Shown piece by piece: positions 3,512 to 56,130 of a stretch of 64,000 bases of DNA (the first letter of the stretch is position 1; every line of letters starts with the position of its first letter). The DNA comes from Candidatus Poribacteria bacterium (GTDB taxonomy: Bacteria; Poribacteria; WGA-4E; WGA-3G): contig OZ244804.1 in the NCBI GenBank assembly GCA_965220065.1, forward strand, positions 4,416,915 through 4,480,914, in the 5' to 3' direction. A model generated the notes under the pieces. The model worked only from the letters and a program-made list of their open reading frames with translations, did not search any database and was not told the origin of the DNA. Made by a program: the position numbers and the translations under genes.

Positions 3512-5146
3512 CTATTTAATTATTTCTCCCGCACTTTCGGTTGGGATATAATAATAGCCAAAGATAATACACATCTCATCTTCAGACGTGAGTCCAAATA
3601 TAAGGGGTTCGTCCGTGTCGTAGTTGTTATGGGTACACTCGAACTTGAGTGTGTCGGCTGCATCTAAGCGAAGAACCGGATCGAAAGGGGTAATCGGGGC
3701 ATCATCATAAGAGATACTCCGATGTAGCAGATCGCCTGTTGAACCCTGAAAAATCTCGAACAGTTCCCCGTGCCGATGCATGTGAGATGTCAGCAGAAAG
3801 ACGTTCAAAGCTGTTCCTGCATCGTGTCCACGACGCTCCAACTCATCTTCAACGTACCACGTCATTTTAGCGACACGTGTTGTTCCGGGTGGGACGTTAA
3901 TTGACCGATTAGAAACGAAGATTTCAACGGCTTCGTATTGGACTTCCGCCTCCGGAATCGTGTAGATATTAACGTAAGTTTCACCAAGCAGCGTTTCGTC
4001 GCCGAGCAGATTGATGTAGTGGGAATTCAGATCGTAAATGGTATCACCGGGGAGCCGTAACCCTACACCCTCCGGGAACGCAAAGAGGGTGTCATCTGTT
4101 TGTGTTCCGACGACGAAAAGTCTGTCAACCCCGAAATTCCCAAGTACCAGCGGATCTTCAGTATCAAGTTCACGGAACTCATCTTCCGAATTAACACCGA
4201 TTCCGGGTGTAATGCCTCTCTCTGGCACACCTTGTGCCAAACCTTCTTCCGTGAATCGATATAAGATGAAGTGATGGCTACCCGCAGGATAGAAAATCTC
4301 TACTCTATTGATAAAGATATCTCCCTCTACGGGATCCCCATTTTCATCTCTGATTTGGGTGGCGTAGTAAATTTCCCGTTCGGTGCCGGGTTCAATTTTG
4401 AACGGCGGCAAATGGAGTTGATAGCCTTCCCCAGGCGCGGGAGGCGCAGGGGGTTCAAAGACTTCATCAGGATCGCGTAAAACACCAAGATCTCCAATAC
4501 CTGCTATTTTACCGGTCTGTGGTGCCCCTGCCTCGATCCATGTCCGAACCGCATCTATCTTACCATTGTGGAGTACGCCGCCACCGAACGGCATCCGCTG
4601 ACCCTGTTCCGCCACTGTCGGTCCCATCAATTTCGTCAAAAGAAAACTGTTCTCTGGGTTCCCTGGGTCAACGAGTTTCATACCCGCCGCTGCCGCCGCG
4701 GGATTCTGTGGCACAACTCCCACCAACTCTTCGTAGGAGAGACCATAGGTGAGATTCAAACCGAGGGCGTTTGCAGGCGCGGCATGGCAAGCACTGTTCG
4801 CACAGCTCTTATCAAAGAGGGCCTCCTGAATATCATGATACGTGGAGTTTTCATCCGGGGCAGTTTGTCCAAAACTGCTGCTCACGCGAACGAGGTCCAA
4901 GACGTTGACAATCCCGTCGCGGTTCACATCAGGATCCTGTTCTGCATTGCGATCCCTGGGTTGTCCGAAAGAACCAGCGACAAGCACCAAATCTTGGATG
5001 TTCACGACACCATCTTTATTAACGTCTTCCAGCAAGGTAGGGAGATTGCTGTGTCCGAACACCAGGAGCGATACGCCACCTACCAGTACAAGAACGAGTG
5101 CGGAATAAACTATTTTTTTTAACATAATTAGTAATTTAACCTCCAA
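3512..5146 (-). CDS. Secreted protein with two dockerin-like repeats and a planctomycete-type cytochrome-c-like (PSCyt-like) domain.
   Basis: The N-terminus is a hydrophobic signal/anchor. The dockerin-like repeats are DVNKDGVVNIQDLVLVAGSFGQ and DVNRDGIVNVLDLVRVSSSFGQ. The segment SCANSACHAA...NPENSFLLTKLMG...RMPFGG...WIEAGAP resembles the PSCyt family but has a CX4CH rather than a CXXCH motif. The C-terminal ~330 aa are unassigned. Confidence 0.55.
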   Translation of the reverse strand: MEVKLLIMLKKIVYSALVLVLVGGVSLLVFGHSNLPTLLEDVNKDGVVNIQDLVLVAGSFGQPRDRNAEQDPDVNRDGIVNVLDLVRVSSSFGQTAPDENSTYHDIQEALFDKSCANSACHAAPANALGLNLTYGLSYEELVGVVPQNPAAAAAGMKLVDPGNPENSFLLTKLMGPTVAEQGQRMPFGGGVLHNGKIDAVRTWIEAGAPQTGKIAGIGDLGVLRDPDEVFEPPAPPAPGEGYQLHLPPFKIEPGTEREIYYATQIRDENGDPVEGDIFINRVEIFYPAGSHHFILYRFTEEGLAQGVPERGITPGIGVNSEDEFRELDTEDPLVLGNFGVDRLFVVGTQTDDTLFAFPEGVGLRLPGDTIYDLNSHYINLLGDETLLGETYVNIYTIPEAEVQYEAVEIFVSNRSINVPPGTTRVAKMTWYVEDELERRGHDAGTALNVFLLTSHMHRHGELFEIFQGSTGDLLHRSISYDDAPITPFDPVLRLDAADTLKFECTHNNYDTDEPLIFGLTSEDEMCIIFGYYYIPTESAGEIIK

Positions 5147-7110: not shown

Positions 7111-9684
7111 CTACTTCTTTATCAACATTTTGCGTGTCATTGAGAAGTCTCCTACCGATAATGTAGAGAAATAAACGCCACTCGCCATGGGTTCACCGTG
7201 TTGATTTCTGCCATCCCAATACGCTGCGCGGCTTTTGCTGTGATACGTTCCTGCAGGTTGATGTCCCAACGCCAAGGTCCGCACCAGTGTTCCATCTATA
7301 GAGCGGATGTGCAACGTCACTTCCGCAGGCTTAGATAACTGATAGGGTATCCACGTCTCAGGGTTAAAAGGGTTCGGATAGTTTGCTAAGAGATGGGTTT
7401 CTGTTGGAATAGTTAAGGTTGCAAGGAGTTGTTCAAGCACAACAATCCCTCTTTTTGCAACCTCAACATTGGGGTGTGAAGAACCAACGTGGAGGTCATA
7501 GTCTTTCGCTTGTCTTATCCACTTCTGTAAGTCTGCGGTTGTAAACGCAGGCATTTCTTGGATATGTAACGCCGGTGCTGCCCGTACATCACTTAACAAA
7601 CTGGCAACTAAGAGGAGATCGGCAATATTGACAATCCCATCTCCGTTAACATCCGGATTTGGATGAACCCTGCCAACGATCGTTTTGCCGAAATTGGAAG
7701 CAACCAATACGAGGTCTGCTATGTTGACCGCTCCATCTCTGTTGACATCGGCGTTGTTTCCAGATACTAAGGCGTTCACTGCTCTGAGTGTGTAGTCCTG
7801 CCGTGTAATATTTCCGTGGACATCAATCACTTGGAGGACGACATTGTTGATTTGCTGTGCCGTTAAGGTCGGCGTGCTGAATTTAAGGAGACTGCTTGGC
7901 GTGTGTAAGTCCTTACAACTGTGTAACTTGACACCGGACGCTGGGTCCAACACGGTCGTCGGCACCAGTAACTGCGCTTGGTGGATACCGTCTACATCAC
8001 TGACGGAAAATTGGAGTGTAAAATTTCTCGCGTTTCGGGAGTACCTTGAAGGCGTGAGCATCTGAATCGTTGTCGGTTCATTGAAGGCGGTTTGACCGGT
8101 GTTAAAAAAGCGATTGGCGTTCAGCCAACTGGCGGCACACTTAGACAGTTGATTTGGTGCTACTCCGTATGACATGATGTATGTCGGATCTCGAAAGTCG
8201 TGCTCTAAACCGAAAGCGTGTCCGAGTTCGTGCGCTGTTACAACGACGCCATACGCCCCCTCGAAACACACACCCGAGGCAGGGATCACCGCGCGGCCCC
8301 CTCGAGCCCTGACCGAGGGTTCATTTTCAAACCAATTGCCGCCACCAACCCCGCATTTGTCTGTTGCACCAATGAACTCACTACTGATGTCTGCGACAAT
8401 GAGATAGACGTGTTTTTCCGTGTCAAACAGAGACGCGACTTCATCGTAGACCTTGTTTGCAGTATCCGTATGGTAATATTGGTCTCTGAACTGCCCCTCA
8501 ACTCGGTATGCAAGCATCTGACCATTTGCATCGGTTTCATACGTGAAGGTTTTTCGACCGAATCCATTAATTTGCATCTGGTCTGCATAAAAACGTTGAA
8601 CGCGCCTTATGAGTGTATCCACCTTCGTCCAGATGCTCGGTTGCATGTTCCGATCGCGCGGGAGGAAATAGATAATCCGCACCATATCCGGAGTGATAGA
8701 ACGATAGGGTGTGACATCCCAGAGTCGGAGTGTGCTGTCCGTACCACCGCTGATCAGCGAACTTCCGTCTGGAGAAAAGGCGGTACCCCTGACCCAATCT
8801 GTGTGTCCCATGAGCGTGCCGATATTCTCGCCGATGTTAACCCTCCATAGATTGACAGATGTATAGCCTGTGGTGGCAAGCGTGCTGCTATCGGGTGAGA
8901 AACTCATATTGGAGATTGTGCCGTTGGTGGTAAGCGTGCCATGGGGTATCCAATTCGGTGCTTTCCATAATTTCACTTTCCCTTCGTATCCCGCACCCGC
9001 AAGGATTTGGGCATCCGGAGAGAACTGAACGGTATAGACGGCCTCCGAATCAGCATGAAGTTGCGTAACAGCCTGTTGGCTTTGAACATCCCAGACGGTA
9101 ACCTGACCACTGTTATCTCCCGTGGCGAGTAGCCTGCCATCGTTGGAAAACGCAACTGCCCAGACCCAGTCGATATGTCTGAGCGTAACGATCTCGTTGT
9201 AGGTGCGTGCGTTCCAGAGCTTCGCATGTCTACCGCCAGTCGCTATCATGCTGCCGTTTGGAGAGAAGGTAACCGCTTTGACTTGTGAACGAGCGCGGTC
9301 AGTAATATGCTCATGGATTACGATATGGCGTTTGTGGTTGACATTCCACAATTTGAGGACATAATCGTCACCACCGCTGGCGAGAAACCTGCCGTCTGGG
9401 GAAAAAGCGATGGAATTGACAGTATCATCGTGGTGACCTAATGTTGCCACGGTCCCGTTCCGCAGATTCCACAACTTTATTACCCCATTATCGCCAGCAC
9501 TGGCAATCAGGAAAGGATTCACCGGGGAATATGCAACCGTTAGGACGCTACTGCCGTGTTTAAGTAAGGTGTGTTCTGTTTGAGCGACGGCGGTGAGTGA
9601 CAGCGTCAGCAAGAGGGGTATTATGAGAGATAGACGCTTGAATTGCATATTTCTAACGATTGGTTTCTGGGGCCTCTCCGTCAC
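7111..9684 (-). CDS. Secreted multidomain protein with WD40 beta-propeller, metzincin-type zinc metalloprotease, dockerin-like repeats and a T9SS C-terminal sorting domain.
   Basis: There is a signal peptide, and the real start is probably the internal ATG at 9648 (MQFKRLSLIIPLLLTLSLTAVA). About 7 WD40 repeats are present (WNxxxG, LWD, WDV). The HELGHAFGLEHD motif is HExxHxxGxxH. The two dockerin repeats are DVNRDGAVNIADLVLVASNFG and DVNGDGIVNIADLLLVASLL. The C-terminus NYPNPFNPETWIPYQL...SGVYFSTL...KMLIKK matches the TIGR04183-type Por secretion sorting domain. Confidence 0.7.
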   Translation of the reverse strand: MTERPQKPIVRNMQFKRLSLIIPLLLTLSLTAVAQTEHTLLKHGSSVLTVAYSPVNPFLIASAGDNGVIKLWNLRNGTVATLGHHDDTVNSIAFSPDGRFLASGGDDYVLKLWNVNHKRHIVIHEHITDRARSQVKAVTFSPNGSMIATGGRHAKLWNARTYNEIVTLRHIDWVWAVAFSNDGRLLATGDNSGQVTVWDVQSQQAVTQLHADSEAVYTVQFSPDAQILAGAGYEGKVKLWKAPNWIPHGTLTTNGTISNMSFSPDSSTLATTGYTSVNLWRVNIGENIGTLMGHTDWVRGTAFSPDGSSLISGGTDSTLRLWDVTPYRSITPDMVRIIYFLPRDRNMQPSIWTKVDTLIRRVQRFYADQMQINGFGRKTFTYETDANGQMLAYRVEGQFRDQYYHTDTANKVYDEVASLFDTEKHVYLIVADISSEFIGATDKCGVGGGNWFENEPSVRARGGRAVIPASGVCFEGAYGVVVTAHELGHAFGLEHDFRDPTYIMSYGVAPNQLSKCAASWLNANRFFNTGQTAFNEPTTIQMLTPSRYSRNARNFTLQFSVSDVDGIHQAQLLVPTTVLDPASGVKLHSCKDLHTPSSLLKFSTPTLTAQQINNVVLQVIDVHGNITRQDYTLRAVNALVSGNNADVNRDGAVNIADLVLVASNFGKTIVGRVHPNPDVNGDGIVNIADLLLVASLLSDVRAAPALHIQEMPAFTTADLQKWIRQAKDYDLHVGSSHPNVEVAKRGIVVLEQLLATLTIPTETHLLANYPNPFNPETWIPYQLSKPAEVTLHIRSIDGTLVRTLALGHQPAGTYHSKSRAAYWDGRNQHGEPMASGVYFSTLSVGDFSMTRKMLIKK

Positions 9685-9830: not shown

Positions 9831-10868
9831 TTATTGGGTTTGTGCCATGGGCACATTCCATTTTTCGGCGCATTCGCGAAGCTGCTGGTAGATGGAGTCG
9901 GGGATATCAATCCCGTTTGCGAGGCGGCGTGCGCGAGTATTCGCTTCAAAATCCCCGGGGACTAACACCGCGTCGAAGCCGGGCGCGGGGGGTATCGTCT
10001 TGATTGCGTCTAAAAATGCCCGAACCCCTTTTTGGTACTCAGCAAGCGATGTGAACGCGTTGACATCAATCACTTGCATGTAGAGACCGCCTATCTGTCC
10101 AGTCTCGATGTTAAATGTTCCTGCCAATCCACCGAGTAGACAGACGAAGAGGGAGAGCGCATAGCCTTTATGCCTTCCAAAAGCAAGAAGATGTCCACCA
10201 TCGCGATACTCGGCAGTTTTGACAGTGGGATTTCCGTCTTTGTCAACAACACATCCTTCCGGCAAATCTCTATTTTCGCTGTCGGCAACGTAGGTTTTAC
10301 CGTTTGCGATCATACTGGTTGCGAAGTCGATGAGAAATGGAGTATCATCGCCTGTAGGGACACCGATGGCGATCGGATTCGTCCCGAGTGCGCCAACCGC
10401 ACCACCGAAGGGGAGGATGCGTCCACCGCCTTTTGAACCGCCACCGACGGTGATAATTCCAATATATCCGGATTCCGCGGCTTCTTGTGCGTATTCACCG
10501 ACCCTGCCGATATGTCCCGTCCGAGTAAGTGTCGCGAAGCAGGTGCGCGCAGTTTTCGCTTTTTCGATCGCACGCCGGACGGTGTATCGGGCAGTATAGT
10601 GCCCAAAACCGTTTCCACCATCAATATGGAGCGTGTTGTTGGTTTCTCGTAGCACATCCGGTTCGGCATCCGGACGGATACCGCCGCCCTCAATTCCGTC
10701 GAGGTAGGAGGGAATCCGAAGCACACCGTGCGAATCGTGTCCAGCGAGATTCGCTTTTATCAAAATCTCGGCAACGTTATCCGCGATGTGCTGCGGTGTG
10801 CCTGCCGCCACAAATATGGCGTTTGTAAATGCCTGAAGATGTGCGGCTTCAAATATGTGCCTCTTCAC
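9831..10868 (-). CDS. Ldh_2 family (malate/L-lactate dehydrogenase family 2) NAD(P)H-dependent oxidoreductase, paralog 1.
   Basis: The GHDSHGV motif and overall similarity to ComC/AllD/DpkA-type enzymes support the call. A GGAGG Shine-Dalgarno lies 8 nt upstream. Confidence 0.75.
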   Translation of the reverse strand: MKRHIFEAAHLQAFTNAIFVAAGTPQHIADNVAEILIKANLAGHDSHGVLRIPSYLDGIEGGGIRPDAEPDVLRETNNTLHIDGGNGFGHYTARYTVRRAIEKAKTARTCFATLTRTGHIGRVGEYAQEAAESGYIGIITVGGGSKGGGRILPFGGAVGALGTNPIAIGVPTGDDTPFLIDFATSMIANGKTYVADSENRDLPEGCVVDKDGNPTVKTAEYRDGGHLLAFGRHKGYALSLFVCLLGGLAGTFNIETGQIGGLYMQVIDVNAFTSLAEYQKGVRAFLDAIKTIPPAPGFDAVLVPGDFEANTRARRLANGIDIPDSIYQQLRECAEKWNVPMAQTQ

Positions 10869-10904: not shown

Positions 10905-11984
10905 TTATGAAAGCGGACTATAGTGTGCCTTGTCGTCTTCCTCGACAGTGTCCTCACCGATGGAAATGCCGAGTTTGTCTGCGCATTCTTGAAGTTGATT
11001 GTAGATGGTGTCGGGGATCTCAATCCCATCCACTAACCGTTGTGTGCGGAATTGGTGTTCAAAATCACCGGGGACAAGGACTTCGTCGAAGCCGGGGGCT
11101 GGCGGTGTAGATTTAATGCCGTCTAAGAAGGCGCGCACACCTTTCTGGTATTCATCAACCGGTGTGAAGGCGTTGACATCGATGGCTTGCATGAAAATGC
11201 CGTTCATGGTGCCCTGCTCTACATCATAAGTTCCTGCCAAGCCACCAAGGAGGCATGTGAGCATAGCGAGTGCGTAGCCTTTATGTTTCCCAAACGCGAG
11301 AAGCGAACCGCCATCGTAGAAATCAGCGGGTTTGACGCTCGGCATTCCGTTTTTATCAAGAATACAACCTTCCGGTAAGTCGATGCCTTTGCTCCGTGCG
11401 ACCTGTATCTTACCTTCGGCAACCATACTCGTGGCATAGTCAACGATAAACGGACTGTCATCGCCGGTCGGCACACCGATGGCGATCGGGTTCGTCCCGA
11501 AAGCACCTTCCGCGCCACCAAAGGGGACAGTGGGTCCTCTGCCTCTACCGCCGCCACCGGTGGTAACAATTGAGATACATCCGGCTCTCGCCGCCGCTTC
11601 TGCATACTCACCCAAACGTCCAATATGTCCAGTGTTAATGATACTGATAGAACAAGAGATAGCGGTTTTTGCCTTTTCTATCGCTTTACTCATAGACCAG
11701 CGTGAGACGTAGTGTCCGAAGCCGCGTTGTCCATCGACACGTAAGGTATTCGCTGTCTCTGCGAGAACTTTGGGTTCCGCGGTCGGATCGAGTTGTTTGG
11801 TATCAATGCCGCGTAAATACGCAGGAACGCGCAGCACGCCGTGTGAGTCGTGACCCGCAAGGTTGGCATTGACGAGGATTTCGGAGACATCCTCTGCGAT
11901 GTGCCGCGATCCGCCAGCGGCGACAAAAATATTACGCGCAATTGCGTGGAGATGTGGTGCCTGAAGTAGATGCGTTTTTTCCAT
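10905..11984 (-). CDS. Ldh_2 family oxidoreductase, paralog 2, in tandem with paralog 1.
   Basis: It has the same GHDSHGV core and is collinear with the 9831..10868 product. I chose the internal start at 11984 (MEKTHLL...) because it aligns with the paralog's N-terminus. The ORF-track start at 12017 is the alternative. Confidence 0.7.
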   Translation of the reverse strand: MEKTHLLQAPHLHAIARNIFVAAGGSRHIAEDVSEILVNANLAGHDSHGVLRVPAYLRGIDTKQLDPTAEPKVLAETANTLRVDGQRGFGHYVSRWSMSKAIEKAKTAISCSISIINTGHIGRLGEYAEAAARAGCISIVTTGGGGRGRGPTVPFGGAEGAFGTNPIAIGVPTGDDSPFIVDYATSMVAEGKIQVARSKGIDLPEGCILDKNGMPSVKPADFYDGGSLLAFGKHKGYALAMLTCLLGGLAGTYDVEQGTMNGIFMQAIDVNAFTPVDEYQKGVRAFLDGIKSTPPAPGFDEVLVPGDFEHQFRTQRLVDGIEIPDTIYNQLQECADKLGISIGEDTVEEDDKAHYSPLS

Positions 11985-12145
11985 TTTTTTAACTATTGCT
12001 CCTGGACTGCCCTCCATTTCATTATGGGCAGGTTTCTGGTCAATTCGCGACTGTGTTTGCTAAAGTTGAAAGTCGTAGAAGAAATATGCACCCTATCTTA
12101 TCGGATTCGCTTTTTTTGTCAATTGAATTATGCGTCCAATCCGTA

Positions 12146-21829: not shown

Positions 21830-22047
21830 TGCGGTTCACTCTCTATATGTCAATTCGTATAGGTTTCAAAATTGTTCTTAATAGACTTAACGTCTTTCTT
21901 ACGACACTGTTTACGAAATAATTCTACACGATTTAAACAGGGAATGCCAATAAAAAACGTGAGGATGGAAGTGTTTTGTGCTTGGAAAATATTATTTGGA
22001 GAAGATAATCCAAGTTTGAATGAGTTGGAGTAATAGTTTTGGGAGAA

Positions 22048-22121
22048 TGGGCGATGCTGGACTTGAACCAGCGACCTCTTGCATGTCAAGCAAACGCTCT
22101 AGCCACCTGAGCTAATCGCCC
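22048..22121 (-). tRNA. tRNA-Val (anticodon GAC).
   Basis: I folded the cloverleaf manually. The acceptor is GGGCGAT/ATCGCCC, the D-arm is GCTC...GAGC, the anticodon loop is TTGACAT and the T-loop is TTCAAGT. Confidence 0.85.
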
Positions 22122-22135
22122 ATCGGAGAAAAGAA

Positions 22136-22210
22136 TGGAGGTGGCGGTCGGAATCGAACCGACGAATAAGAGTTTTGCAGACTCTGGCCTTACCACTTGG
22201 CTACGCCACC
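22136..22210 (-). tRNA. tRNA-Cys (anticodon GCA), with encoded CCA.
   Basis: The acceptor is GGTGGCG/CGCCACC, the anticodon loop is CTGCAAA, the T-arm is GTCGG-TTCGATT-CCGAC and the discriminator is U. Confidence 0.85.
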
Positions 22211-22218
22211 ATAGAAGA

Positions 22219-22293
22219 TGGAGCGGGAGACGAGATTTGAACTCGCGACCTCCACCTTGGCAAGGTGGAGCTCTACCACTGAGCTACTCCCGC
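22219..22293 (-). tRNA. tRNA-Gly (anticodon GCC), with encoded CCA.
   Basis: The acceptor is GCGGGAG/CTCCCGC, the anticodon stem-loop is CCACC-TTGCCAA-GGTGG and the T-loop is TTCAAAT. Confidence 0.85.
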
Positions 22294-28202: not shown

Positions 28203-29030
28203 TTATCGTTCTGGAATGCTATCCTCAGCTGGACGGAGGTTATGCACCCAGTGTCCACTCGGATCGCTGCCTCTGGCGACAATTGCACGTCGGTTCCAGT
28301 CGTTTGCGGCGCGGACTTCAGGCGGCACGAACCGCATCGTCAACCCACAACGCCGTCGATCTGAGGTGTTCGGTTCAGAACCGTGCAATAGCAGATCCGA
28401 ATGCAGCGACATCTGCCCGGCTTTCATCTCGAATGGGAACGGTGCGTCCCCGTATTGCGTAGCCCCATGCACCGTCTGACCCAGCACATTCTTTTCCTCG
28501 GCAGTGCTCGGCTCAAATGCGATTTGCCCGTGCAGGTGCGATTTGGGGATAACGGTCATTGCACCATTTTCGACCGCCGCATCGTCAATCGCGAGCCATA
28601 CGGTAACCGTCTTGCTCGGAGAGAGGGGCCAATAGGAAGCATCCTGATGCCAACTCACCTGTTTCACATCGCCTGGTAATTTGCAAAAGTAGTGCGTTCC
28701 CCAACAGATGAGCGTTTCACCGAGTAGGTCTTGCACGTAATCGAGAATTCTGCCTTCAGTAATCAGATCATGGATACCCGGACAGGTAGTATGCCATCCG
28801 TTAATGGAGTAGCTATTCATCCCTGCTGCGAATGCTTTCTCCATGAGCTGATCGAAATAGGCGCGGTGTTCCACCATCTCCGATTCGGAAAAGACATCCA
28901 AAGGTGAGATAAAACCTCTCTCATTAAAGTGGTCAATTTGGGCATGCGTTAGGGTTGATGGATTTTCGTTTTCAACCGGAAAAAACTGAAGTGTTCGATT
29001 GAGTTCCGGCATTGCATCCGTAATTGGCAT
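28203..29030 (-). CDS. Phytanoyl-CoA dioxygenase (PhyH) family Fe(II)/2-oxoglutarate-dependent oxygenase.
   Basis: The HxD...H facial triad context (WHQDASYWPL...; ...HSDLLLHGSEPNTSDRRR) is present in a 275-aa protein. Confidence 0.75.
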   Translation of the reverse strand: MPITDAMPELNRTLQFFPVENENPSTLTHAQIDHFNERGFISPLDVFSESEMVEHRAYFDQLMEKAFAAGMNSYSINGWHTTCPGIHDLITEGRILDYVQDLLGETLICWGTHYFCKLPGDVKQVSWHQDASYWPLSPSKTVTVWLAIDDAAVENGAMTVIPKSHLHGQIAFEPSTAEEKNVLGQTVHGATQYGDAPFPFEMKAGQMSLHSDLLLHGSEPNTSDRRRCGLTMRFVPPEVRAANDWNRRAIVARGSDPSGHWVHNLRPAEDSIPER

Positions 29031-32612: not shown

Positions 32613-33425
32613 ATGATACAAATCAAATCAGCGTTGGATTCAGAGAGGCTTGATGTTGTCGAAAACGACCTCCGCGAAGTCGGTTTCCATGTCATTGAGA
32701 ATGTGATTACCGACGAAGAGGCAGACGCAGCGCGCGAGGTAATCTGGAAATTAATCGAAGAGGATATTGCCAACGGATATGACCACAGTTACGGCGACGG
32801 CAAAATCCGTCGTGTCTGGGCAATCGTTGGGAAATCCCCAATCTTCCGCTATTTCATCCAGCACCCGACCGTCGTGGCAGTATGGAAACGGATGCTCGGT
32901 GAGGATGTCATCGCTTCCACATTTACAGCGAATATCGTTGGACCCGGTGCACCCGCAGGCGGTTGGCATATCGACTATCCGTATTGGGCGATGCAATCGC
33001 CGTTCCCGTCCGGTTCGTTGACGGGACAGACGGTCTGGATGTTAGACGATTTCACGGAAGAGAACGGGGCAACGGCGTGTATTCCAGAGTCACACAAAAC
33101 GCTCCGTCGTCCGGAGTTGGGAGAAGCCGAGGGACTTGAGATGAGCATCGCTGTTGCACCGAAAGGCTCTATCATGTTCACGAACGGTGCGATCTGGCAT
33201 CAGTCGCGGGCGAACCTAACGGACACACCCCGCGTCGGACTGCTCGGTATGTATAACAGATCGGTCATTTACCCGCAGGAGGATATGCCTCGGCAGTTGA
33301 CTGATGCCGAGTTAGCAGGTGAGAGCGATGTCTTAAAGCAGTTGTTGGGCAGAAATATCCAGTTTCGCGATCCAGATCACGCGCAAAATTGGCATCGCAC
33401 GGACGCAGGGTTTCGCGAAGCGTAG
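32613..33425 (+). CDS. Phytanoyl-CoA dioxygenase (PhyH) family oxygenase, second copy.
   Basis: The iron-binding context is ...GGWHIDYPYW... and ...GAIWHQSRANL.... Length is 270 aa. Confidence 0.7.
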   Translation: MIQIKSALDSERLDVVENDLREVGFHVIENVITDEEADAAREVIWKLIEEDIANGYDHSYGDGKIRRVWAIVGKSPIFRYFIQHPTVVAVWKRMLGEDVIASTFTANIVGPGAPAGGWHIDYPYWAMQSPFPSGSLTGQTVWMLDDFTEENGATACIPESHKTLRRPELGEAEGLEMSIAVAPKGSIMFTNGAIWHQSRANLTDTPRVGLLGMYNRSVIYPQEDMPRQLTDAELAGESDVLKQLLGRNIQFRDPDHAQNWHRTDAGFREA

Positions 33426-33619: not shown

Positions 33620-34666
33620 ATGCCAGTTGTATCTCATGATGTTTTGAGAAAGTTTGTGTATGACATATATCGCGGGGCGGGTGGTACGGAGGAAGATGCC
33701 CGTATCGTCAGTGACCACGTTGTCGATTCTAATCTCGTCGGACACGATTCACACGGCGTCATCAACGCGCCGAACTACATCGGGGGGATGGAAGGCGGTC
33801 CCGCCGCAGATAAGATGGAGATTGTCAGAGAAAGTGGTGCCGCCACCGTCATCAATGCCAACGGCGCACTCGGGATGGTTGCCGCCCGTAAAGCGATGGA
33901 GATGGCTATTGAAAAAGCGGAAAGTTGCACGATCGGTGCGGTCGGCTTGCATCGGTGTGGGCACGCAGGACGGATGGGAGAATATCCGCCAATCGCTGCC
34001 CGTGCTGGCATGATCGGGATCGTTCTGCTCAACGGTGGTGGACGTTTCATGCATCCGCACGGTGGTACCTCTCGGAGACTGCCCCCGAATCCGATTGCGA
34101 TCTCAGTGCCGCGTCAGGGGGGTGAACCGCTTCTCCTTGATATGACACTCAGCGTTGTCGCGGGTGGAAAACTGCTCGTCCAGACGGCGCGCGGTGAGCC
34201 GATACCGGAAGGCTGGATGATAGATGCCGAAGGTCAACCGCTCACAGATCCGAATGCGTTTCGTGAACGTCCGCAGGACACAGCCGTTATGCCACTCGGT
34301 GGTTTTCAGTTCGGGCATAAAGGGTTCGGACTCGGTGTGATGATAGATGCTATCGCTGGCGGACTTTCTTGGGCAGGATGTAGTCGTGAACAACCGACCC
34401 GCGGCGCAAGTGGCATTGTGATGTTCGCAATTAAAATCGGGGATTTCATCGATTTAGCAGACTATGAACAGGAGATCGCATATCTTGCGGAGTGGGTGAA
34501 GTCATCCGCTCGGTTGCCCGGTGTTGATGAAATCTATGTACCTGGAGAGTTTGAGGAACGGAGCCGTGAGAAACGCCTGTGTGAAGGGATACCCATAGAG
34601 GAGCCGACTTGGAATCGCCTCGTTGAAGCCGCAGAACGTTTTGATGTTGCGGTACCCAGTTTCTAA
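33620..34666 (+). CDS. Ldh_2 family oxidoreductase, paralog 3.
   Basis: It has the VGHDSHGV motif and is collinear with the other two paralogs at 9831-11984. Confidence 0.75.
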   Translation: MPVVSHDVLRKFVYDIYRGAGGTEEDARIVSDHVVDSNLVGHDSHGVINAPNYIGGMEGGPAADKMEIVRESGAATVINANGALGMVAARKAMEMAIEKAESCTIGAVGLHRCGHAGRMGEYPPIAARAGMIGIVLLNGGGRFMHPHGGTSRRLPPNPIAISVPRQGGEPLLLDMTLSVVAGGKLLVQTARGEPIPEGWMIDAEGQPLTDPNAFRERPQDTAVMPLGGFQFGHKGFGLGVMIDAIAGGLSWAGCSREQPTRGASGIVMFAIKIGDFIDLADYEQEIAYLAEWVKSSARLPGVDEIYVPGEFEERSREKRLCEGIPIEEPTWNRLVEAAERFDVAVPSF

Positions 34667-40641: not shown

Positions 40642-40716
<75 letters not shown>

Positions 40717-41604: not shown

Positions 41605-44600
41605 ATGAAATTGAAAAAATATAACCCCTTGCAATCTTTGAGTCGTAAGTATCCGAAACTTGCGAGTTTCACCAAAGTAGCATCTTTCTTCTTCGTTGCT
41701 GTGTATATGGCAATAGTGGTTAACTTTGATGTCTCTGCGGCGATCACCGGAAAAATTTCTGGGGTAATCACCGCTGAAGAAACGGATTCCCCGCTTGCGA
41801 CTGTCACGGTAACACTCGTTGGTACAAGCACTACCGCGACAACGAACAGTGCTGGCTATTATGTTATGACCAACGTCCCACCCGGAAGTTATGATGTAAA
41901 GGTCGAGCTCACGGGTTATGCGGCAGAAACTGTAGCGGCGACAAGCGTGCTCGCCGGTCTTACGACAACGTTGGACTTTACCCTAAAGAGTACGGCTGTG
42001 CAACTTGAAGGTATAACGGTAACGGCTGTTAAGCCGCTAATTAAGAAAGATGTCACGCAGTCGACAAGAATCATTGAATCAGATAATATTGAGGCTATGC
42101 CCCGCGATACCGTGAATGGGATTTTACAAACCCTTCCTGGGGTTGCGGTGCTGAACTCAACCGGTTCAACGCATGTTCGCGGGGGTAGGTCAATGGAGAT
42201 TCGGTATCTCATTGATGGTATCCCGATTAATAATCCGATCAGCAGAAGTTTGGGGTTGAGTATCGGCACGAATTCCCTTGAGCAGATGGAGGTCATCACC
42301 GGTGGATTTAATGCGGAGCACGGTGATGCGCAATCCGGTATTGTGAATCTCATCACGAAGGTTGGAACGAATAAATTTTCTGGTAGAGTCCGATACCGAG
42401 TTGGACAGTGGGGGACGCACCACGGCGATCCGTTGTACGGTCCATGGCTTGATCCAGATAATGGATTTCGACCCGTTGCGATTGAACCCTTCAGAGGTAT
42501 CTTTTTTGGGCAACCCTACGACTATCAAAAGCCGTATCGCGGACGGGATGTCACGGTTGCAGAGTTAGCGGAACGCGAAGGCGACGAACAGGTCGTCTTT
42601 ACGGAGATTTTCCCCGGCGTATATGCCGACAGGACAGAAAACCCGCTCCAGCCCGTGATGGACCCAGAAACGGGTGAACCGCAGGTTAACCCCGATACGG
42701 GTGAACCGATTATGACGCGTCAACCTTATAAGGATGCCGATGGTACTGTTATCGACTATGAGAAGAAACAGGTTACTTTGTTAGACGGCTACGTCGTGGA
42801 TCTCGAACAGTATAAGGGATTGTTCAACGACACGAAAAAGTACGAGCTGTCTCCGAGCCATATCGGTGAATTCGCGCTCAGCGGACCGATATGGGGAAAT
42901 CGGTTGACGTTCGCTGTCTCCAGTCAGCTAAGTCGGAATCACAGTTTTTTTCCGAATAGTGGGGGAACGGGATATATCTTCCAAGGAAAGCTGAAGTTTG
43001 AAGTAACACCGAGTCTCAAACTCACTACAAGTGGGCTTTTCAATAGGTCGGAAGGTTACTCCTATGGGGGTTCGCTGCGCTTTTGGCCCAGTGCCGTTCC
43101 GGAGTCAAATTCAAACGCTCGGAATATGTCCGTGCGACTCTCACATAATATCAACTCTGGTACTTTCTATACGTTGACACTTGGGCAATTTCATCGTTCT
43201 GGTGAGGCACATCAACCCGGAAAGGTGTGGGATCCGTTGGAGAAGACGTTTGATGAAAACGCTTGGGATCCCGATAAATCCTTTGAGCAGAATCAGGAAG
43301 AAGGCAGAATCAGGAACCCACCCCAACAGGCATATAACGATACAACCTATTTAGTCGCCGGGGACAGCAATTCTTGGGGAACCAGCACTGCGACAACCTC
43401 AATCGCAAGAGCGGATTTTTCCAGCCAAGTTACGGCGAACCACCTGATCCAGACAGGCGTTGAGTTCTTGGGATACGATCTCTATAATCTCAGCACGACG
43501 AATTACGGAAGCTCCAACCTTTACATGGAGTACTACGATGTCCAACCGCAATCCTTGAGTATGTATCTCCAAGACAAGATGGAGTATGAAGGCATGATCG
43601 TCAACGCCGGGTTACGATATGACCTGTATAATCCATCTGGTGTTTCACCCCAAGACCCGTTTGATCCGCTCGAATTGAACGACGATGGCACCATCAAACT
43701 CGATAAAAGCACCCATAAAGTCGGACTCCCTATCATCAAAGATCCTGTTCAGGCTTCCACCAAACACATGATCGCCCCACGTCTCGGCATCTCCTTCCCG
43801 GTTACCGACCGATCGAAGTTGCACTTCACGTACGGGCATTACTATCAGATTCCACGAGGTGATGATCTCTACGAAAACCTCAATTTTGACATGCGGGGCG
43901 CAATCCGAAGAAGAGGGAATCCTGACTTAGATCCAGAGCGGACGATCGCTTATGAAGTCGGTATCATACGTCAATTCACCGATGACTTGACGATTGACAT
44001 CACCGGATTCACCAAGGATATTGACAAACTCGTCAATAGCGTACACGTTGACATTACCAACGATTATAGCTACTTCCTCAATAGTGAATTCGAGGGAATG
44101 CTCCACGGCATCTATGGTCGGGTGCAAGGGTTTGAACTCACGATTCGCAAATGGCGCACAGGTGGAAGTCCGGTTTCTGGACTGCTCAGTTATACCTATT
44201 CCGTCGCGAAGGGAAAAGGTTCCAGCCGAAATCTGGGCTATCTCACCTACTACCGGCAACAGCCTGACGTAACCGAAAGCCACCCGTTGGCATGGGATCA
44301 ACGTCACATTTTCTCTGGAATGTTGGACATCCAATTGCCATTTGATTCCTCTGTCAATCTGATTGGCAGGTATGGGAGCGGTTTGCCCTACACGCCGAAT
44401 CCGAGAGCACCCGTCAAACCCGACATCAACTCGAAGCGTTACCCGCCGACCTACAATGTGGATGCCCTTATCAGCAAACGGAGTCGGATTGGTGGGTTGA
44501 CTTATACCTTCTTTGCCGACATTCGGAACATCTTCAATACGAAGAATCTCGACGATATCTTAGATGCGGTGACCTATGACCGATACGGTATCCCGCTCAA

Positions 44601-44676
44601 CAGCCAAAAACATTCGCATCCGCTGTCGTGGAGTTCACCACGGTTGATTATGATGGGCGTGAGTCTGGATTTTTAG
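41605..44676 (+). CDS. TonB-dependent receptor-like outer-membrane beta-barrel with an N-terminal carboxypeptidase-regulatory-like domain.
   Basis: A signal/anchor is followed by a CarbopepD_reg-like segment (GVITAEETDSPLATVTVTLVG...GYYVMTNVPPGSYDV), a plug-like region and a long barrel ending in ...GVSLDF (terminal aromatic). Confidence 0.7.
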   Translation: MKLKKYNPLQSLSRKYPKLASFTKVASFFFVAVYMAIVVNFDVSAAITGKISGVITAEETDSPLATVTVTLVGTSTTATTNSAGYYVMTNVPPGSYDVKVELTGYAAETVAATSVLAGLTTTLDFTLKSTAVQLEGITVTAVKPLIKKDVTQSTRIIESDNIEAMPRDTVNGILQTLPGVAVLNSTGSTHVRGGRSMEIRYLIDGIPINNPISRSLGLSIGTNSLEQMEVITGGFNAEHGDAQSGIVNLITKVGTNKFSGRVRYRVGQWGTHHGDPLYGPWLDPDNGFRPVAIEPFRGIFFGQPYDYQKPYRGRDVTVAELAEREGDEQVVFTEIFPGVYADRTENPLQPVMDPETGEPQVNPDTGEPIMTRQPYKDADGTVIDYEKKQVTLLDGYVVDLEQYKGLFNDTKKYELSPSHIGEFALSGPIWGNRLTFAVSSQLSRNHSFFPNSGGTGYIFQGKLKFEVTPSLKLTTSGLFNRSEGYSYGGSLRFWPSAVPESNSNARNMSVRLSHNINSGTFYTLTLGQFHRSGEAHQPGKVWDPLEKTFDENAWDPDKSFEQNQEEGRIRNPPQQAYNDTTYLVAGDSNSWGTSTATTSIARADFSSQVTANHLIQTGVEFLGYDLYNLSTTNYGSSNLYMEYYDVQPQSLSMYLQDKMEYEGMIVNAGLRYDLYNPSGVSPQDPFDPLELNDDGTIKLDKSTHKVGLPIIKDPVQASTKHMIAPRLGISFPVTDRSKLHFTYGHYYQIPRGDDLYENLNFDMRGAIRRRGNPDLDPERTIAYEVGIIRQFTDDLTIDITGFTKDIDKLVNSVHVDITNDYSYFLNSEFEGMLHGIYGRVQGFELTIRKWRTGGSPVSGLLSYTYSVAKGKGSSRNLGYLTYYRQQPDVTESHPLAWDQRHIFSGMLDIQLPFDSSVNLIGRYGSGLPYTPNPRAPVKPDINSKRYPPTYNVDALISKRSRIGGLTYTFFADIRNIFNTKNLDDILDAVTYDRYGIPLNSQKHSHPLSWSSPRLIMMGVSLDF

Positions 44677-50164: not shown

Positions 50165-50170
50165 CCGTTG

Positions 50171-51976
50171 ATGGATATTGACGGAGCACGCTTAAACAGC
50201 GAATTTACACTCGTAAAAATCGTCCTACTCTGTATTCTGATTGCCTCAGCGGTTTTAGTGCTGCGGAATCTCGGACATAGTGGGATTACGTATTGGGACG
50301 AAGGGTTTCACGCCGTCGTTGCACGGAATTTGACGAAACATCCGCTCAAATTCACGCTCTACGATCAACCGTGGCTCCCTTATGACTACAAAGGTTGGGG
50401 TGAGAACCATATCTGGCTCCATAAACCGCCTGTCGCCATGTGGACGATCTGGCTCTCGCACCTTCTTTTCGGTATCAATACGTTCGCGCTCCGGTTGCCA
50501 TCTGCAATCAGTTTGGTTGTGACGACGTGGTTGACATTCCGAATTGCTGCGGATCTCTTTGACAAACGGGCAGGACTCATTGCGGCATTCCTCCAGGCGT
50601 TTAACCCGTTTCTCTTTGAGTCCGTTCACGGCTATCGTTATTCGGATCACATCGACATCGCTTTGTTGCTCTGGGTACAGGTTTCGTGTTGGTTCCTGCT
50701 CCGTGCGATTCGGACAGGCAAACGGCGAAATTACATCTTATCCGGCGTTGCAATGGGTGTTGCGTATCTGTCGAAAAGCTACCTCGCACTCATCACTTTT
50801 GGCATCGCGCTTGTCGTTTGGTGTGTTAAGTGGGCCAGGCAAATCTATCGCGAGAGATGTGTCTCGGATAATAGCGCGCAAAACGAGGTGCAAGAAGCAA
50901 AAATTCGTCTCAGGGACATCGGTTTACAACTCTTAGCCGCACTTGCGACGGTGGCACCGTGGGTCATCTATTGCCTGATTTACTATCGCAAGGAATTCCT
51001 TTGGGAACATAAACGCGTGTTGGATCACCTCAACACCGATGTCGAGAGTTGGGGAGCAAGTTGGGACCGACCGTTGTTTGATTACATGCCGCTGTTTTAT
51101 CCGGTGTTCTATGCCGCACTCATTGCGGCGGTGTTGTGTCTGATAGTCGTCCTGTTCAAACGGTGGCAGTTAGCAGAACTTTTCGTGTTAGCGTGGGGTA
51201 TCGGCGTGATTGTCCCGCATACACTCGCAGAGACGAAAACGCCATCGGCGACGATGATTGCCGTGCCACCGCTACTGATGTGTCTCGCCGCGGTCATCAG
51301 CCGAGCATGGCAACGACGGGATTGGGTTTACACCTCTATTTGGATGGCGGGAATGCTTGCGGTGACTATCATCTCTGGTGGACGTACGCTCGTCCAGAGT
51401 CGTGACCAGTTTGATGGACTCAAAAAGATCGCACCCTTTATCCAAACGAATTTCTGGATTGTTGAGCAACTGATCGGATTTGGCGTACTATTGGCAATTT
51501 TCGCGGGTGTGTACATGCTGGTTCGCCACCGCAATGTGCAAAGATGGATATGGTTTGGTCTCCGAACCGTGGCACTGATAATTGCGTTATTCTATGCAGG
51601 ACGCTATGTGCATGCCGCTTACAGCGTCACAGAACGGAATAGTCAAGTCCCTCTATATGAAACGAGTGGACCACGTCTCCAACGTGAAATGCCAGAGAAC
51701 GCCTGTTTCTTTCTTGACGATGAGCGTGTTGGGGCACATTTCGATTTGATGTATTACGCAGATCGGTCAACGTATCAGATTTACAATAAGCACATGAAGA
51801 AGCCTCGCGATTTCAAGAGCCAAGCCAAGATAGCTCGTGAAGCCGGTGCAATTCCCTATCTTTTCTCTGTCAAAGAGACAGTCTACAATTATCCGCTGTT
51901 CATTGAAGATGAAGTGGACATCGGGAATGGAAAAATGCAACAGTATCGGGTTTTTGAAATTACGGAAACCCGATGA
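50171..51976 (+). CDS. GT-C fold glycosyltransferase (ArnT / PMT-like, GT39/83-type) integral membrane protein.
   Basis: It has about 12+ transmembrane helices. A DEG motif with an acidic first loop (YWDEGFHAV) sits near the N-terminus, as in ArnT/PMT lipid-linked sugar transferases. Length is about 600 aa. Confidence 0.65.
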   Translation: MDIDGARLNSEFTLVKIVLLCILIASAVLVLRNLGHSGITYWDEGFHAVVARNLTKHPLKFTLYDQPWLPYDYKGWGENHIWLHKPPVAMWTIWLSHLLFGINTFALRLPSAISLVVTTWLTFRIAADLFDKRAGLIAAFLQAFNPFLFESVHGYRYSDHIDIALLLWVQVSCWFLLRAIRTGKRRNYILSGVAMGVAYLSKSYLALITFGIALVVWCVKWARQIYRERCVSDNSAQNEVQEAKIRLRDIGLQLLAALATVAPWVIYCLIYYRKEFLWEHKRVLDHLNTDVESWGASWDRPLFDYMPLFYPVFYAALIAAVLCLIVVLFKRWQLAELFVLAWGIGVIVPHTLAETKTPSATMIAVPPLLMCLAAVISRAWQRRDWVYTSIWMAGMLAVTIISGGRTLVQSRDQFDGLKKIAPFIQTNFWIVEQLIGFGVLLAIFAGVYMLVRHRNVQRWIWFGLRTVALIIALFYAGRYVHAAYSVTERNSQVPLYETSGPRLQREMPENACFFLDDERVGAHFDLMYYADRSTYQIYNKHMKKPRDFKSQAKIAREAGAIPYLFSVKETVYNYPLFIEDEVDIGNGKMQQYRVFEITETR

Positions 51977-55065: not shown

Positions 55066-56130
55066 ATGCAACGTATAATTTATATGCTATTATTCATATT
55101 TCTTTTACTCTGGGATGTTCCCAGTCATGCCACAACCAATGTTGGCACGGCGGGTGCCCAGTTTCTGAAAATCGGTCCCGGTGCACGGGTAGACAGTCTT
55201 GGAGGGGCGTTTGGCGCGCTCGCCGACGACGTAACCAGTATCTACTGGAACCCAGCAGGGATAAGCCAACTCGAAAAAACCAGTTTTTCGGACACACATA
55301 CCGTCTGGCTTGCCGATGTCCGTTATAACTATCTGGCGTTCGCTACACCGATAAAAAACATCGGCACTGTGGGCGCGAGCGTCACATTCCTCAATGTCCC
55401 GGATACGGAGATTACCACACTGGCAAAACCCGATGGGACGGGTCTCTGGTATTCTGCTTATGATACCGCTGTCTCGTTGGCGTATGCCCGTCAACTTTAC
55501 GAACAGGAATCCGGCGTTAAATTATCTGTCGGTATTAATGCCAAATACATCCACCAGCAGATCCATAGAGAAAGTGCCAGAGGCGTTGCTATTGATGTCG
55601 GCACCCTGTACCATACCGGCTGGCGCAGTCTACGAATCGGGATGTGTTTCTCGAACTTTGGACCGGAAATGCGCTTCGGCGGTCCTGATTTAGAGAGTGG
55701 GGCAGAAGTTGCAGGAGACCCACGGATAGGGAGTTACCGCCCGTTTCCAGACACAACGAATCCGGCACGGAAAGCAGAATTAGAGACGATTGAGTTCCCG
55801 CTACCCTCCAATTTCCGACTCGGACTCGCCTATGACATTATTGATTCTGGTAGCAATCTCCTCACGCTTGCCCTTGACGCCAACCATCCCAACGATAATA
55901 GTGAACGGTTGAACATCGGCATGGAGTACTGGTACAGAAAAATGGCAGCAATTCGGGGCGGTTACAAATTCCGATTAGGAGAAGACCGCACCGACGATGA
56001 AGAGGGGCTTACACTCGGTTTAGGCATCCACCTGAACCTTGGCAGAAGGGTCCTTTCTCTCGATTATGCCTATGCTGATTTCGGACGCCTACAACAGGTA
56101 CACCGAGTGAGTTTGGGATTACAGTTCTAA
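55066..56130 (+). CDS. PorV/PorQ-family outer-membrane beta-barrel protein (T9SS-associated, FadL-like).
   Basis: After a signal peptide, GTAGAQFLKIGPGARVDSLGGAFGALADDVTSIYWNPAGIS is a strong match to the conserved N-terminal signature of PorV/PorQ-like proteins. The gene sits immediately downstream of the T9SS cargo gene (12-nt gap, AGGAG Shine-Dalgarno). Confidence 0.6.
   Translation: MQRIIYMLLFIFLLLWDVPSHATTNVGTAGAQFLKIGPGARVDSLGGAFGALADDVTSIYWNPAGISQLEKTSFSDTHTVWLADVRYNYLAFATPIKNIGTVGASVTFLNVPDTEITTLAKPDGTGLWYSAYDTAVSLAYARQLYEQESGVKLSVGINAKYIHQQIHRESARGVAIDVGTLYHTGWRSLRIGMCFSNFGPEMRFGGPDLESGAEVAGDPRIGSYRPFPDTTNPARKAELETIEFPLPSNFRLGLAYDIIDSGSNLLTLALDANHPNDNSERLNIGMEYWYRKMAAIRGGYKFRLGEDRTDDEEGLTLGLGIHLNLGRRVLSLDYAYADFGRLQQVHRVSLGLQF

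Follow-up and report, generated by a model that had tools for sequence, protein, structure and literature searches.

The question raised by positions 7111..9684 of the stretch analysed here, 64,000 nucleotides of contig OZ244804.1 from a Candidatus Poribacteria bacterium (assembly GCA_965220065.1; the whole stretch is called the window below), is whether a single minus-strand gene really joins a WD40 propeller, a zinc protease, dockerin repeats and a C-terminal sorting domain in one secreted protein, and what such a protein might do. Poribacteria are an uncultured phylum known mainly as sponge symbionts. On the computational evidence gathered here, the gene is a real and conserved, predicted secreted zinc protease of this phylum, in which a WD40 propeller is followed by a protease of the OgpA type, a dockerin and a sorting domain resembling those of type IX secretion (the T9SS). 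A sequence-only reading had claimed that about seven WD40 repeats, a zinc metalloprotease, two dockerin-like calcium-binding repeats and a Por-type C-terminal domain (CTD) occur together in this protein. All four modules were recovered, far above chance, at the coordinates listed in Table 1. Two further parts came to light: a beta-sandwich (aa ~538-640), which is part of the fold of the protease, and, between dockerin and CTD, a linker of two helices (aa ~701-765). No database record of the identical full sequence was found by exact-sequence look-up.

Architecture of the propeller-protease

The gene is a single uninterrupted open reading frame (ORF) of 857 codons, followed by a stop at 7111..7113. 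Since its orthologues are mostly of 845 aa and begin 12 residues later, the ATG at 9648 (M13) is likely to be the true start, which would give a protein of 845 aa. From this start the protein would open with MQFKRLSLIIPLLLTLSLTAVA, followed by Q, a stretch typical of a classical signal peptide, and inspection of the sequence of this peptide revealed no lipobox cysteine.

The propeller is covered by the Pfam model PF00400 in seven stretches between aa 36 and 326 (E 2.6e-50, 167 bits), in agreement with the number of repeats that had been proposed, and the whole-propeller model WDHD1_1st is also passed (118.6 bits against a cutoff of 109.9). The successive repeats end in LWNL74, LWNV115, LWNA159, VWDV200, LWKA242, LWRV282 and LWDV324, and a linker of only about 10 residues separates the last blade from the first catalytic strand. 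Because WD40 models crowd the result table, the part of the protein outside the propeller was scanned separately with Pfam.

Downstream of the protease, the proposed pair of calcium-binding repeats was borne out by Dockerin_1 (PF00404), with 37.8 bits against a cutoff of 22.9, and by two canonical DxNxDGxxNxxD loops (aa 646-657 and 678-689), both of which carry D or N at loop positions 1, 3, 5, 9 and 12. Among the orthologues D646, D657, D678, D682 and D689 are invariant. The AlphaFold (AF2) model of the C-terminal part, with a predicted local distance difference test (pLDDT) value of 70, consists of two dockerin helices, at aa 655-663 and 687-695 after the respective loops, two linker helices and a beta domain. 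This last domain passes the NCBIfam model TIGR04183 (Por_Secre_tail, T9SS type A) at aa 769-856 with 24.9 bits against a cutoff of 23, so that the Por-type CTD was confirmed, at a borderline score; Pfam FlgD_ig reaches 37.8 bits there, against a cutoff of 27. A start motif of the form NYPNPFNP is typical of type A CTDs.

Table 1. Features of the propeller-protease and of two further proteins encoded in the window
Feature	Residues (aa)	Window positions	Strand	Basis
Predicted signal peptide, MQFKRLSLIIPLLLTLSLTAVA before Q	13-35	9580..9648	-	Read from sequence; conserved in orthologue consensus
Seven-bladed WD40 beta-propeller (predicted)	36-326	8707..9579	-	Pfam WD40 and many propeller models
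Predicted catalytic domain, OgpA/AMUC_1438-type metzincin	334-537	8074..8685	-	PDB phmmer, profile, AF2, Foldseek, PF12044
Zinc-binding motif HELGHAFGLEHD	485-496	8197..8232	-	Ligands H485, H489, H495; catalytic base E486
Met-turn YIMSYG (M504)	502-507	8164..8181	-	M504, S505, Y506, G507 invariant in orthologue set
Beta-sandwich of OgpA-type fold (predicted)	538-640	7765..8073	-	AF2 strands at model residues 211-308; Foldseek
Type I dockerin, Ca-binding loops DVNRDGAVNIAD and DVNGDGIVNIAD	644-700	7585..7755	-	Pfam Dockerin_1; motif scan
Two-helix linker (predicted)	701-765	7390..7584	-	AF2 helices aa 716-728, 738-757
C-terminal sorting/anchor domain, T9SS type A kind, starting NYPNPFNPETWIPY (predicted)	766-857	7114..7389	-	TIGR04183; FlgD_ig; start motif invariant
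PorV/PorQ-family outer-membrane barrel	full-length	55066..56130	+	NF033709, PDB PorV, UPF0164
991-aa secreted protein, signal peptide and divergent T9SS-like CTD (predicted)		52078..55053	+	Directly upstream of the PorV-like gene; 50168..51976 (+) upstream

The protease unit

The zinc metalloprotease motif of the earlier reading was found as HELGHAFGLEHD, together with a Met-turn, and a metzincin fold is supported. HELGHAFGLEH at aa 485-495 satisfies the metzincin signature HEXXHXXGXXH. H485, E486, H489 and H495 are invariant both in the 121 sequences of the orthologue set and in 74 members of the wider family; G492 is kept in 119 of the former and 59 of the latter. In the Met-turn, M504, S505, Y506 and G507 occur in 121/121 sequences of the orthologue set, and the methionine is found in 58 of the 74 family members.

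When the PDB was searched with phmmer, the top matches were AMUC_1438 (8dek/8df2; E 2.3e-7) and OgpA (6z2d; E 2.2e-5), with alignments running from the first strand (VRIIYFLPRD) through FYADQMQINGFG up to the zinc motif. A profile built from the 74 family members retrieved OgpA at E 4e-16 and AMUC_1438 at E 1.3e-15, and PF12044 is passed at a borderline 27.5 bits against a cutoff of 27. The AF2 model of aa 329-645 (pLDDT 91.9; predicted template-modelling score, pTM, 0.91) was compared with the PDB by using Foldseek, which returned OgpA with E 4e-17 (TM 0.58-0.64) and Amuc_1438 with E 3.3e-15 to 3.5e-13, the TM range over both sets of matches being 0.46-0.64 and the next match having E 1e-4. 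These alignments comprise about 355-370 columns and therefore cover both the catalytic domain and the beta-sandwich. As the phmmer, profile and fold matches all favour OgpA and AMUC_1438, the predicted unit at aa 334-640 is of the OgpA/AMUC_1438 O-glycopeptidase type (PF12044), composed of a catalytic domain and a beta-sandwich. Such a sandwich beside the catalytic domain has been described for the OgpA-type fold (PMC7518263, PMC9513282). The members of this group are metzincins that cut N-terminal to O-glycosylated Ser/Thr (PMC9513282, PMC7518263), and the group has no MEROPS family (PMC9513282).

The families M10, M12 and M43, which the sequence-only reading had offered as candidates, gave way to this assignment once they were checked by profile. 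Peptidase_M10 matches over the zinc helix with 19.7 bits, below its cutoff of 24. For M12, Reprolysin_5 (27.6 bits against 27) and Reprolysin_3 (24.3 against 22.4) are both marginal, the former spanning no more than the surroundings of the zinc helix (aa ~142-180 of the fragment); neither Reprolysin_4 nor Reprolysin_2 reaches its cutoff, and the best M12 structure in Foldseek, ecarin, reaches only E 2.8e-4 and TM 0.30. Peptidase_M43 gave no match in the Pfam scan of the non-WD40 part.

In the consensus of the propeller-free paralogues, the catalytic domain starts directly after the signal peptide. The OgpA-type family thus has no propeptide, and for this reason export probably leaves the protease active. 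In the orthologue set, C444 and C473 do not vary and C590 is present in 120 of the 121 sequences, a pattern consistent with an extracytoplasmic, disulfide-bonded protein.

Conservation, synteny and the modular family

An orthologue set was assembled with the whole protein as query, clustered at 90% identity and aligned with MAFFT. At least 120 clusters match over the full length (96-100% of the query) with 62-94% identity and 831-870 aa; their named members are all from Candidatus Poribacteria and are annotated as "hypothetical protein" or "T9SS type A sorting domain-containing protein". Likewise, all full-length relatives in the GTDB species set (55-85% identity) come from metagenome-assembled genomes of Candidatus Poribacteria, several of which are complete chromosomes of 5-7 Mb. 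The gene order Ldh_2, Ldh_2, propeller-protease, SDR, GT2, dockerin-Cu2_monoox_C and MetH-like is the one seen in the window and is kept around orthologues of 76% and 63% identity. Identity is even along the protein, being 0.68 for the WD40 part, 0.76 for the protease, 0.71 for the sandwich, 0.65 for the dockerin and 0.76 for the CTD, with 0.50 for the linker. The many full-length clusters, the conserved synteny and this evenness together indicate that the propeller-protease gene is a conserved core gene of the phylum and not a chance fusion. The call for a search of orthologues and their neighbourhoods was thus answered by numerous orthologues in a conserved setting, and the combination cannot be called unusual, as the sequence-only reading had it, given that it is shared at full length by these clusters and recurs more widely, as described below.

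The same data bear on the possibility that the long ORF arose as an artefact of assembly or annotation, or is a decayed fusion of a WD40 gene with a protease gene or a catalytically dead adhesin. Some relatives are indeed pieces of about 500 aa holding WD40 repeats and half a protease (e.g. P0010). Yet the same uninterrupted 831-870 aa recur in at least 120 independent clusters from many assemblies, complete chromosomes included, and identity is even across domains (0.65-0.76 except in the linker). With invariant catalytic residues and a widespread architecture in addition, this explanation is effectively refuted and is left with a very small chance. The short WD40 plus protease matches (P0010, P0031, P0047 and others) were considered as a separate architecture and set aside; most of them begin with WD40 repeats at the first residues, so that they look like truncated gene calls. 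Two other sequences were at first taken for distant full-architecture orthologues (35-36% identity, "aa 19-845") and were rejected. One (L028) lacks the protease and has WD40 repeats and a CTD; for the other (L025), a WD40-rich ORF was recovered that does not end in a CTD.

The protease family itself is far larger than this orthologue group. With the catalytic part as query, 1,826 representatives of 50%-identity clusters were found at E <= 1e-3 among 1.84 billion proteins, 723 of them at E <= 1e-30. The best 150 representatives were annotated with hidden Markov models built from the orthologue alignment. WD40 repeats occur in 36 of these 150, N-terminal to the protease in 31, some of them with double propellers, and only C-terminal in five. 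In the relative P0110, too, the protease comes first and the WD40 repeats after it. The CTD is present in 83 of the 150 and the dockerin in 62, and the complete architecture is found in 14 distinct 50%-identity clusters. Precomputed Pfam lists add leucine-rich repeats (LRR) and NPCBM to the partner modules of the family. A 1,922-aa paralogue (L019:11092-16857) combines an OgpA-type protease with LRR, ten Big_1/invasin-like repeats, a dockerin, a linker and a CTD.

The dockerin cassette and its possible partners

Exactly aa 651-745, comprising dockerin and linker, are missing from 14 of 120 orthologue clusters, which retain the CTD. The existence of this subgroup of about 750 aa (e.g. P0139, P0166, P0180, P0192, P0201) means that the dockerin cassette is dispensable in some lineages. 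Conversely, the dockerin-linker-CTD cassette, or the CTD alone, terminates unrelated Poribacteria proteins, among them YWTD propellers, LRR proteins, a trypsin-like protease and WD40-only proteins. Cohesin (PF00963) was detected at 42 and 41.6 bits (cutoff 24.1) in CTD proteins of other Poribacteria genomes (L020, L027), and as two cargo types contain it, candidate partners for the dockerin exist in the phylum on CTD-bearing proteins.

These two proteins (L020:6323-10600 and L027:8909-10603) unite cohesin, dockerin and the same CTD in one chain; LRR repeats and a PSCyt1-like N-terminus are present as well in one of them, and a trypsin-like protease in the other. Their composition suggests a self-assembling cohesin-dockerin network on the cell surface. 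Within the window, the gene at 3512..5146 (-), two genes downstream of the propeller-protease gene, encodes a signal peptide, then an N-terminal dockerin (35.7 bits) and, at its end, a copper monooxygenase-like Cu2_monoox_C domain; its synteny is kept in two orthologous loci (L001, L002).

Candidate sorting machinery in the window

The product of 55066..56130 matches the full profile of NF033709 (PorV_fam) with 230.9 bits against a cutoff of 90. It stays below the equivalog cutoffs of PorV (88.2 against 250) and PorQ (104.9 against 220), is found with F. johnsoniae PorV (6h3i_F) at E 3.8e-5, scores 26 bits against 27 with the Pfam PorV model and 38.5 bits against 21.4 with UPF0164. This barrel of the PorV/PorQ family may be considered a candidate receptor or shuttle for the CTD. 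It places a protein of this family in a phylum outside the FCB superphylum for which no Por structural genes have been reported.

The 991-aa protein encoded beside it is 79-91% identical in at least 120 clusters, whose named members are all hypothetical proteins of Poribacteria, and in other Poribacteria genomes (L032, L033, L034) its gene lies between a PMT_2 glycosyltransferase gene and the PorV-family gene. No other family was found for it in Pfam, even at E 10, or in the PDB sequence search, and in NCBIfam only its C-terminal CTD was matched. In P. gingivalis, porU lies next to porV, and both PorU and PorZ carry a CTD of their own. The 991-aa protein is put forward as a candidate PorU/PorZ-like partner. 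Taken together, the PorV-family gene and its conserved pairing with the gene of the 991-aa CTD protein make a T9SS-like route for CTD proteins, short of a complete T9SS, plausible.

Proposed mechanism and competing explanations

The reading preferred here, and held to be reasonably probable, is that of a surface-displayed OgpA-type zinc endopeptidase that is exported by Sec and then by a CTD/PorV-type route, is optionally docked to cohesin-bearing surface proteins, and uses its WD40 propeller to select substrates or partners. The predicted N-terminal Sec signal peptide would bring the protein to the periplasm, from which the Por-type CTD would direct it to the outer membrane, either across it or onto its surface, along a T9SS-like route making use of the PorV/PorQ-family barrel. 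The dockerin could then plug the enzyme into cohesins of other CTD-tagged surface proteins, giving a cellulosome-like surface assembly. Catalysis would be carried out by the OgpA/AMUC_1438-type metzincin with its beta-sandwich, an activity presumed from homology and fold; as substrates, extracellular proteins of the matrix or of particles are likely, and these are probably glycosylated. The seven-bladed propeller would serve as the recognition module for substrates or partners, a role parallel to that possibly played by the CBM51-like module in AMUC_1438 or by the LRR and NPCBM modules in the paralogues. A targeting function is suggested mainly by the way in which WD40 has been joined to the protease time and again, on one side or the other, and is exchanged for LRR and CBM-like modules. 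A surface-tethered protease whose propeller recruits substrates or partners had already been suggested by the earlier reading; this is still the most economical account, strengthened by the recurrent WD40 fusions on either side and by the PorV-family gene, the recruiting role of the propeller being its presumptive part.

Several observations weigh against this account, many of them touching on export. The CTD is borderline, as Pfam PF18962 gives 16.7 bits against a cutoff of 27, and the pLDDT-70 model yields weak, non-discriminating Foldseek matches in which the FlgD Ig domain comes first (7e-4) and the PorU/RgpB CTDs follow at about 0.02. The PorV-like gene lies 45 kb from the protease gene and shares no operon with it; no further T9SS genes, SprA/Sov, PorK/L/M/N and PorU included, were found among the window ORFs scanned; and no cohesin was seen within the 64-kb window. 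Reviews restrict T9SS to the FCB superphylum, and Kamke and others reported no Por structural genes in poribacterial single-cell genomes (Kamke et al., 2014; PMC3909097). From such points an alternative can be built, in which the C-terminal domain is merely an Ig-like structural or adhesive domain of the FlgD type with no secretion signal, the protein is periplasmic or is released by type II secretion or vesicles, and the PorV-family gene is unrelated. The passing of Pfam FlgD_ig alongside the failure of the Pfam Por_Secre_tail model (PF18962), the first rank of FlgD domains in Foldseek, the lack of reported Por structural genes (PMC3909097) and the single T9SS-related gene seen in 64 kb would all fit it. 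Even so it is considered unlikely, because the domain always forms the very C-terminus of proteins that have a signal peptide and otherwise unrelated passenger domains, begins with the NYPNPFNP motif, passes TIGR04183 and is homologous to the CTD of one Ignavibacteria protein, and because a full-length PorV/PorQ-family protein is encoded next to another CTD protein, as a pair conserved in other Poribacteria genomes. Another possibility is that the propeller does not recruit anything and instead gates or inhibits the enzyme within the molecule. It might cover the cleft, as happens in prolyl oligopeptidase or DPP-IV, or stand in for a prodomain, so that only small or unfolded substrates gain access. 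Peptidases gated by a propeller are familiar, the linker of about 10 residues that joins the last blade to the protease is very short, and in a family with no propeptide some other control of activity would be useful. A gate is nevertheless quite improbable here, given that five representatives have WD40 only at the C-terminal side, far from the protease in sequence, that others have double propellers, and that many paralogues have no propeller or bear LRR or NPCBM in its place; this variable position, absence and replacement of the WD40 part fits interchangeable targeting modules better than an obligatory gate.

The remaining alternative concerns specificity rather than display. The enzyme could be a strict, mucinase-like O-glycopeptidase, as are OgpA and AMUC_1438. 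It would then cleave glycoproteins of the host mesohyl or mucus on the N-terminal side of O-glycosylated Ser/Thr, and the propeller would be an accessory module for binding. In its favour, the two Akkermansia O-glycopeptidases (PMC7518263, PMC9513282) are the only relatives, by structure and sequence, whose function is known, the NPCBM/CBM51-like PF08305 occurs in some paralogues as it does in AMUC_1438, sialylated glycoconjugates occur in sponge mesohyl, and glycan-degrading enzymes are enriched in Poribacteria (PMC8163846). The residues that hold the sugar are Y116, F166, W199, N235 and Y236 in OgpA (PMC7518263) and Y171 and Y217 in AMUC_1438 (PMC9513282). Here the alignment, whose loops are unreliable at 14-17% identity, sets T406 against Y116, K443 against F166/Y171 and G479 against W199/Y217, so that the glycan-contacting aromatics are not conserved at the aligned positions; Y478, next to G479, is kept in only 69 of the 121 orthologue-set sequences. 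These observations count against a strict O-glycopeptidase. W451, Y404 and Y506 are invariant aromatics near the pocket positions. Further points against it are that the Met-turn follows the third His after 9 residues, compared with 16 in OgpA, that the segment ahead of the HELGH helix differs among members of the protease family, and that the wider family is mostly environmental, with roles that may be diverse (Medley et al., PMC9513282). Because the OgpA glycan-pocket aromatics are not clearly kept, glycan dependence is unproven: strict O-glycan dependence is possible, is not backed by residue conservation, and as a full explanation of the protein is regarded as a possibility on the less likely side.

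Comparison with known systems

OgpA (Amuc_1119, "OpeRATOR", from Akkermansia muciniphila; PDB 6Z2D/6Z2O/6Z2P/6Z2Q) shares with the propeller-protease the fold of metzincin and beta-sandwich, the absence of a propeptide, the HELGHxxxLxH zinc site, the catalytic Glu, the Met-turn and the N-terminal strand and helix (VRIIYFLP...FYADQM). It differs in being a stand-alone enzyme of 385 aa with no propeller, dockerin or CTD, in its identity of about 14%, in its gut Verrucomicrobium host, and in its pocket residues Y116, F166, W199, N235 and Y236, which are not recognisably conserved in the propeller-protease. AMUC_1438, a Tn-antigen O-glycopeptidase (PDB 8DEK/8DF2; PMC9513282), is the best PDB sequence match and has the same fold, the motif HELGHSFGLPH and a modular build, its catalytic unit being followed by an NPCBM/CBM51-like targeting module that some poribacterial paralogues also carry. 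There, a C-terminal carbohydrate-binding module takes the place of the N-terminal WD40 propeller, and dockerin and CTD are absent.

Matrix metalloproteases (MMPs) with a hemopexin domain (MEROPS M10A) are metzincins covalently joined to a beta-propeller that serves the recognition of substrates or partners. The hemopexin propeller has four blades, lies at the C-terminus and is unrelated to WD40, and MMPs possess a cysteine-switch propeptide. The propeller-protease resembles them in the covalent union of a metzincin with a propeller and in a Met-turn close after the third His; its fold, by contrast, matches OgpA and not the MMPs, and Peptidase_M10 remains below cutoff. The T9SS cargo proteases of Bacteroidota, such as the gingipains and the metzincins karilysin and mirolysin of Tannerella forsythia, are attached to the surface or secreted via PorV. 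With these the propeller-protease has in common a signal peptide, a protease and a C-terminal type A CTD, whereas they come from bacteria in which the T9SS is complete and has been demonstrated, are members of other peptidase families and bear neither propeller nor dockerin; here, only a PorV/PorQ-family gene has been seen.

The dockerin enzymes of the clostridial cellulosomes carry the same type I dockerin with two canonical calcium-binding loops, and cohesins occur in the phylum Poribacteria too. The organism studied here is, in contrast, of the Gram-negative type, cohesin and dockerin are found in the same CTD-tagged polypeptides, and the cargo is a protease and not a glycoside hydrolase. 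Closest in taxonomic terms are the poribacterial WD40 proteins, which, as Kamke and others described, often carry TIGR04183 (Kamke et al., 2014; PMC3909097). Phylum and combination of WD40 with a Por-type CTD are the same, and the propeller-protease is evidently one of that set; that study, however, reported no protease, dockerin or PorV-family gene, treated the repeats as possible host-interaction domains and left the export route unknown (PMC3909097).

Novelty and significance

The modules themselves are all known, many orthologues are present in databases, and the occurrence of WD40 with a Por-type CTD in Poribacteria has been on record since 2014; what appears to be new is the fusion to an OgpA-type peptidase. 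No description of an OgpA-type peptidase fused with WD40, dockerin and CTD was found in the searchable literature, and searches on Poribacteria with dockerin, cohesin or T9SS, or on O-glycopeptidases with sponge symbionts, returned nothing relevant. Robbins and others pointed out that little is known of how eukaryote-like repeat proteins interact with the cells of sponges, and that secretion systems are encoded in few lineages (Robbins et al., 2021; PMC8163846). The locus makes both aspects of this problem testable. As regards export, a WD40 protein with a signal peptide and a Por-type tail is encoded in the same window as a PorV-family barrel. As regards function, the protease to which the repeats are joined again and again, on one side or the other, has no characterised relatives except the mucin O-glycopeptidases of Akkermansia, which suggests that WD40 repeats aim extracellular enzymes at glycoproteins of the host or of particles. 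The OgpA/AMUC_1438 peptidase family at the same time gains a large radiation of environmental members (723 of the 50%-identity clusters, at E <= 1e-30) with new partner modules, which could supply reagents for glycoproteomics if glycan-dependent members exist.

A broader and more speculative proposal, for which the present evidence leaves considerable doubt, is that Poribacteria run a divergent or reduced T9SS-like sorting system, comprising the PorV/PorQ-family barrel, the phylum-specific 991-aa CTD protein and the adjacent PMT_2 glycosyltransferase, which would export many CTD-tagged "eukaryote-like repeat" proteins with signal peptides. Cohesin-dockerin contacts would assemble these into a cellulosome-like complex on the cell surface, in which an expanded family of OgpA-type proteases would be aimed at host matrix glycoproteins by interchangeable WD40, LRR and CBM modules. 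If true, this would recast the WD40 and LRR repeat proteins of sponge symbionts as the targeting arms of extracellular enzymes and would explain how they leave the cell.

Other genes in the window

Three genes of the Ldh_2 family (malate/L-lactate/ureidoglycolate dehydrogenase-like) are present at 9831..10868 (-), 10905..12017 (-) and 33620..34666 (+). The first two form a tandem immediately upstream of the propeller-protease gene, and this tandem pair is conserved in synteny. At 57944..61033 (+), the alpha and beta subunits of glycyl-tRNA synthetase are fused in a protein of 1,029 aa, which is called as two overlapping genes in another locus (L032). The gene at 41605..44676 (+) encodes a TonB-dependent receptor with an N-terminal CarboxypepD_reg domain, a SusC-like architecture typical of Bacteroidota; its place beside RecO is conserved in L032. 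A tRNA cluster at 22047..22293 (-) comprises Val-GAC, Cys-GCA and Gly-GCC, and a separate tRNA-Pro-CGG is located at 40642..40716 (+). Finally, the genes at 28203..29030 (-) and 32613..33425 (+) are PhyH-like, resembling Fe(II)/2-oxoglutarate-type hydroxylases or halogenases, with weak matches to "chlorinating enzyme" and "ectoine hydroxylase"; phyH-domain proteins of Poribacteria are the subject of supplementary tables in the work of Kamke and others (Kamke et al., 2014; PMC3909097).

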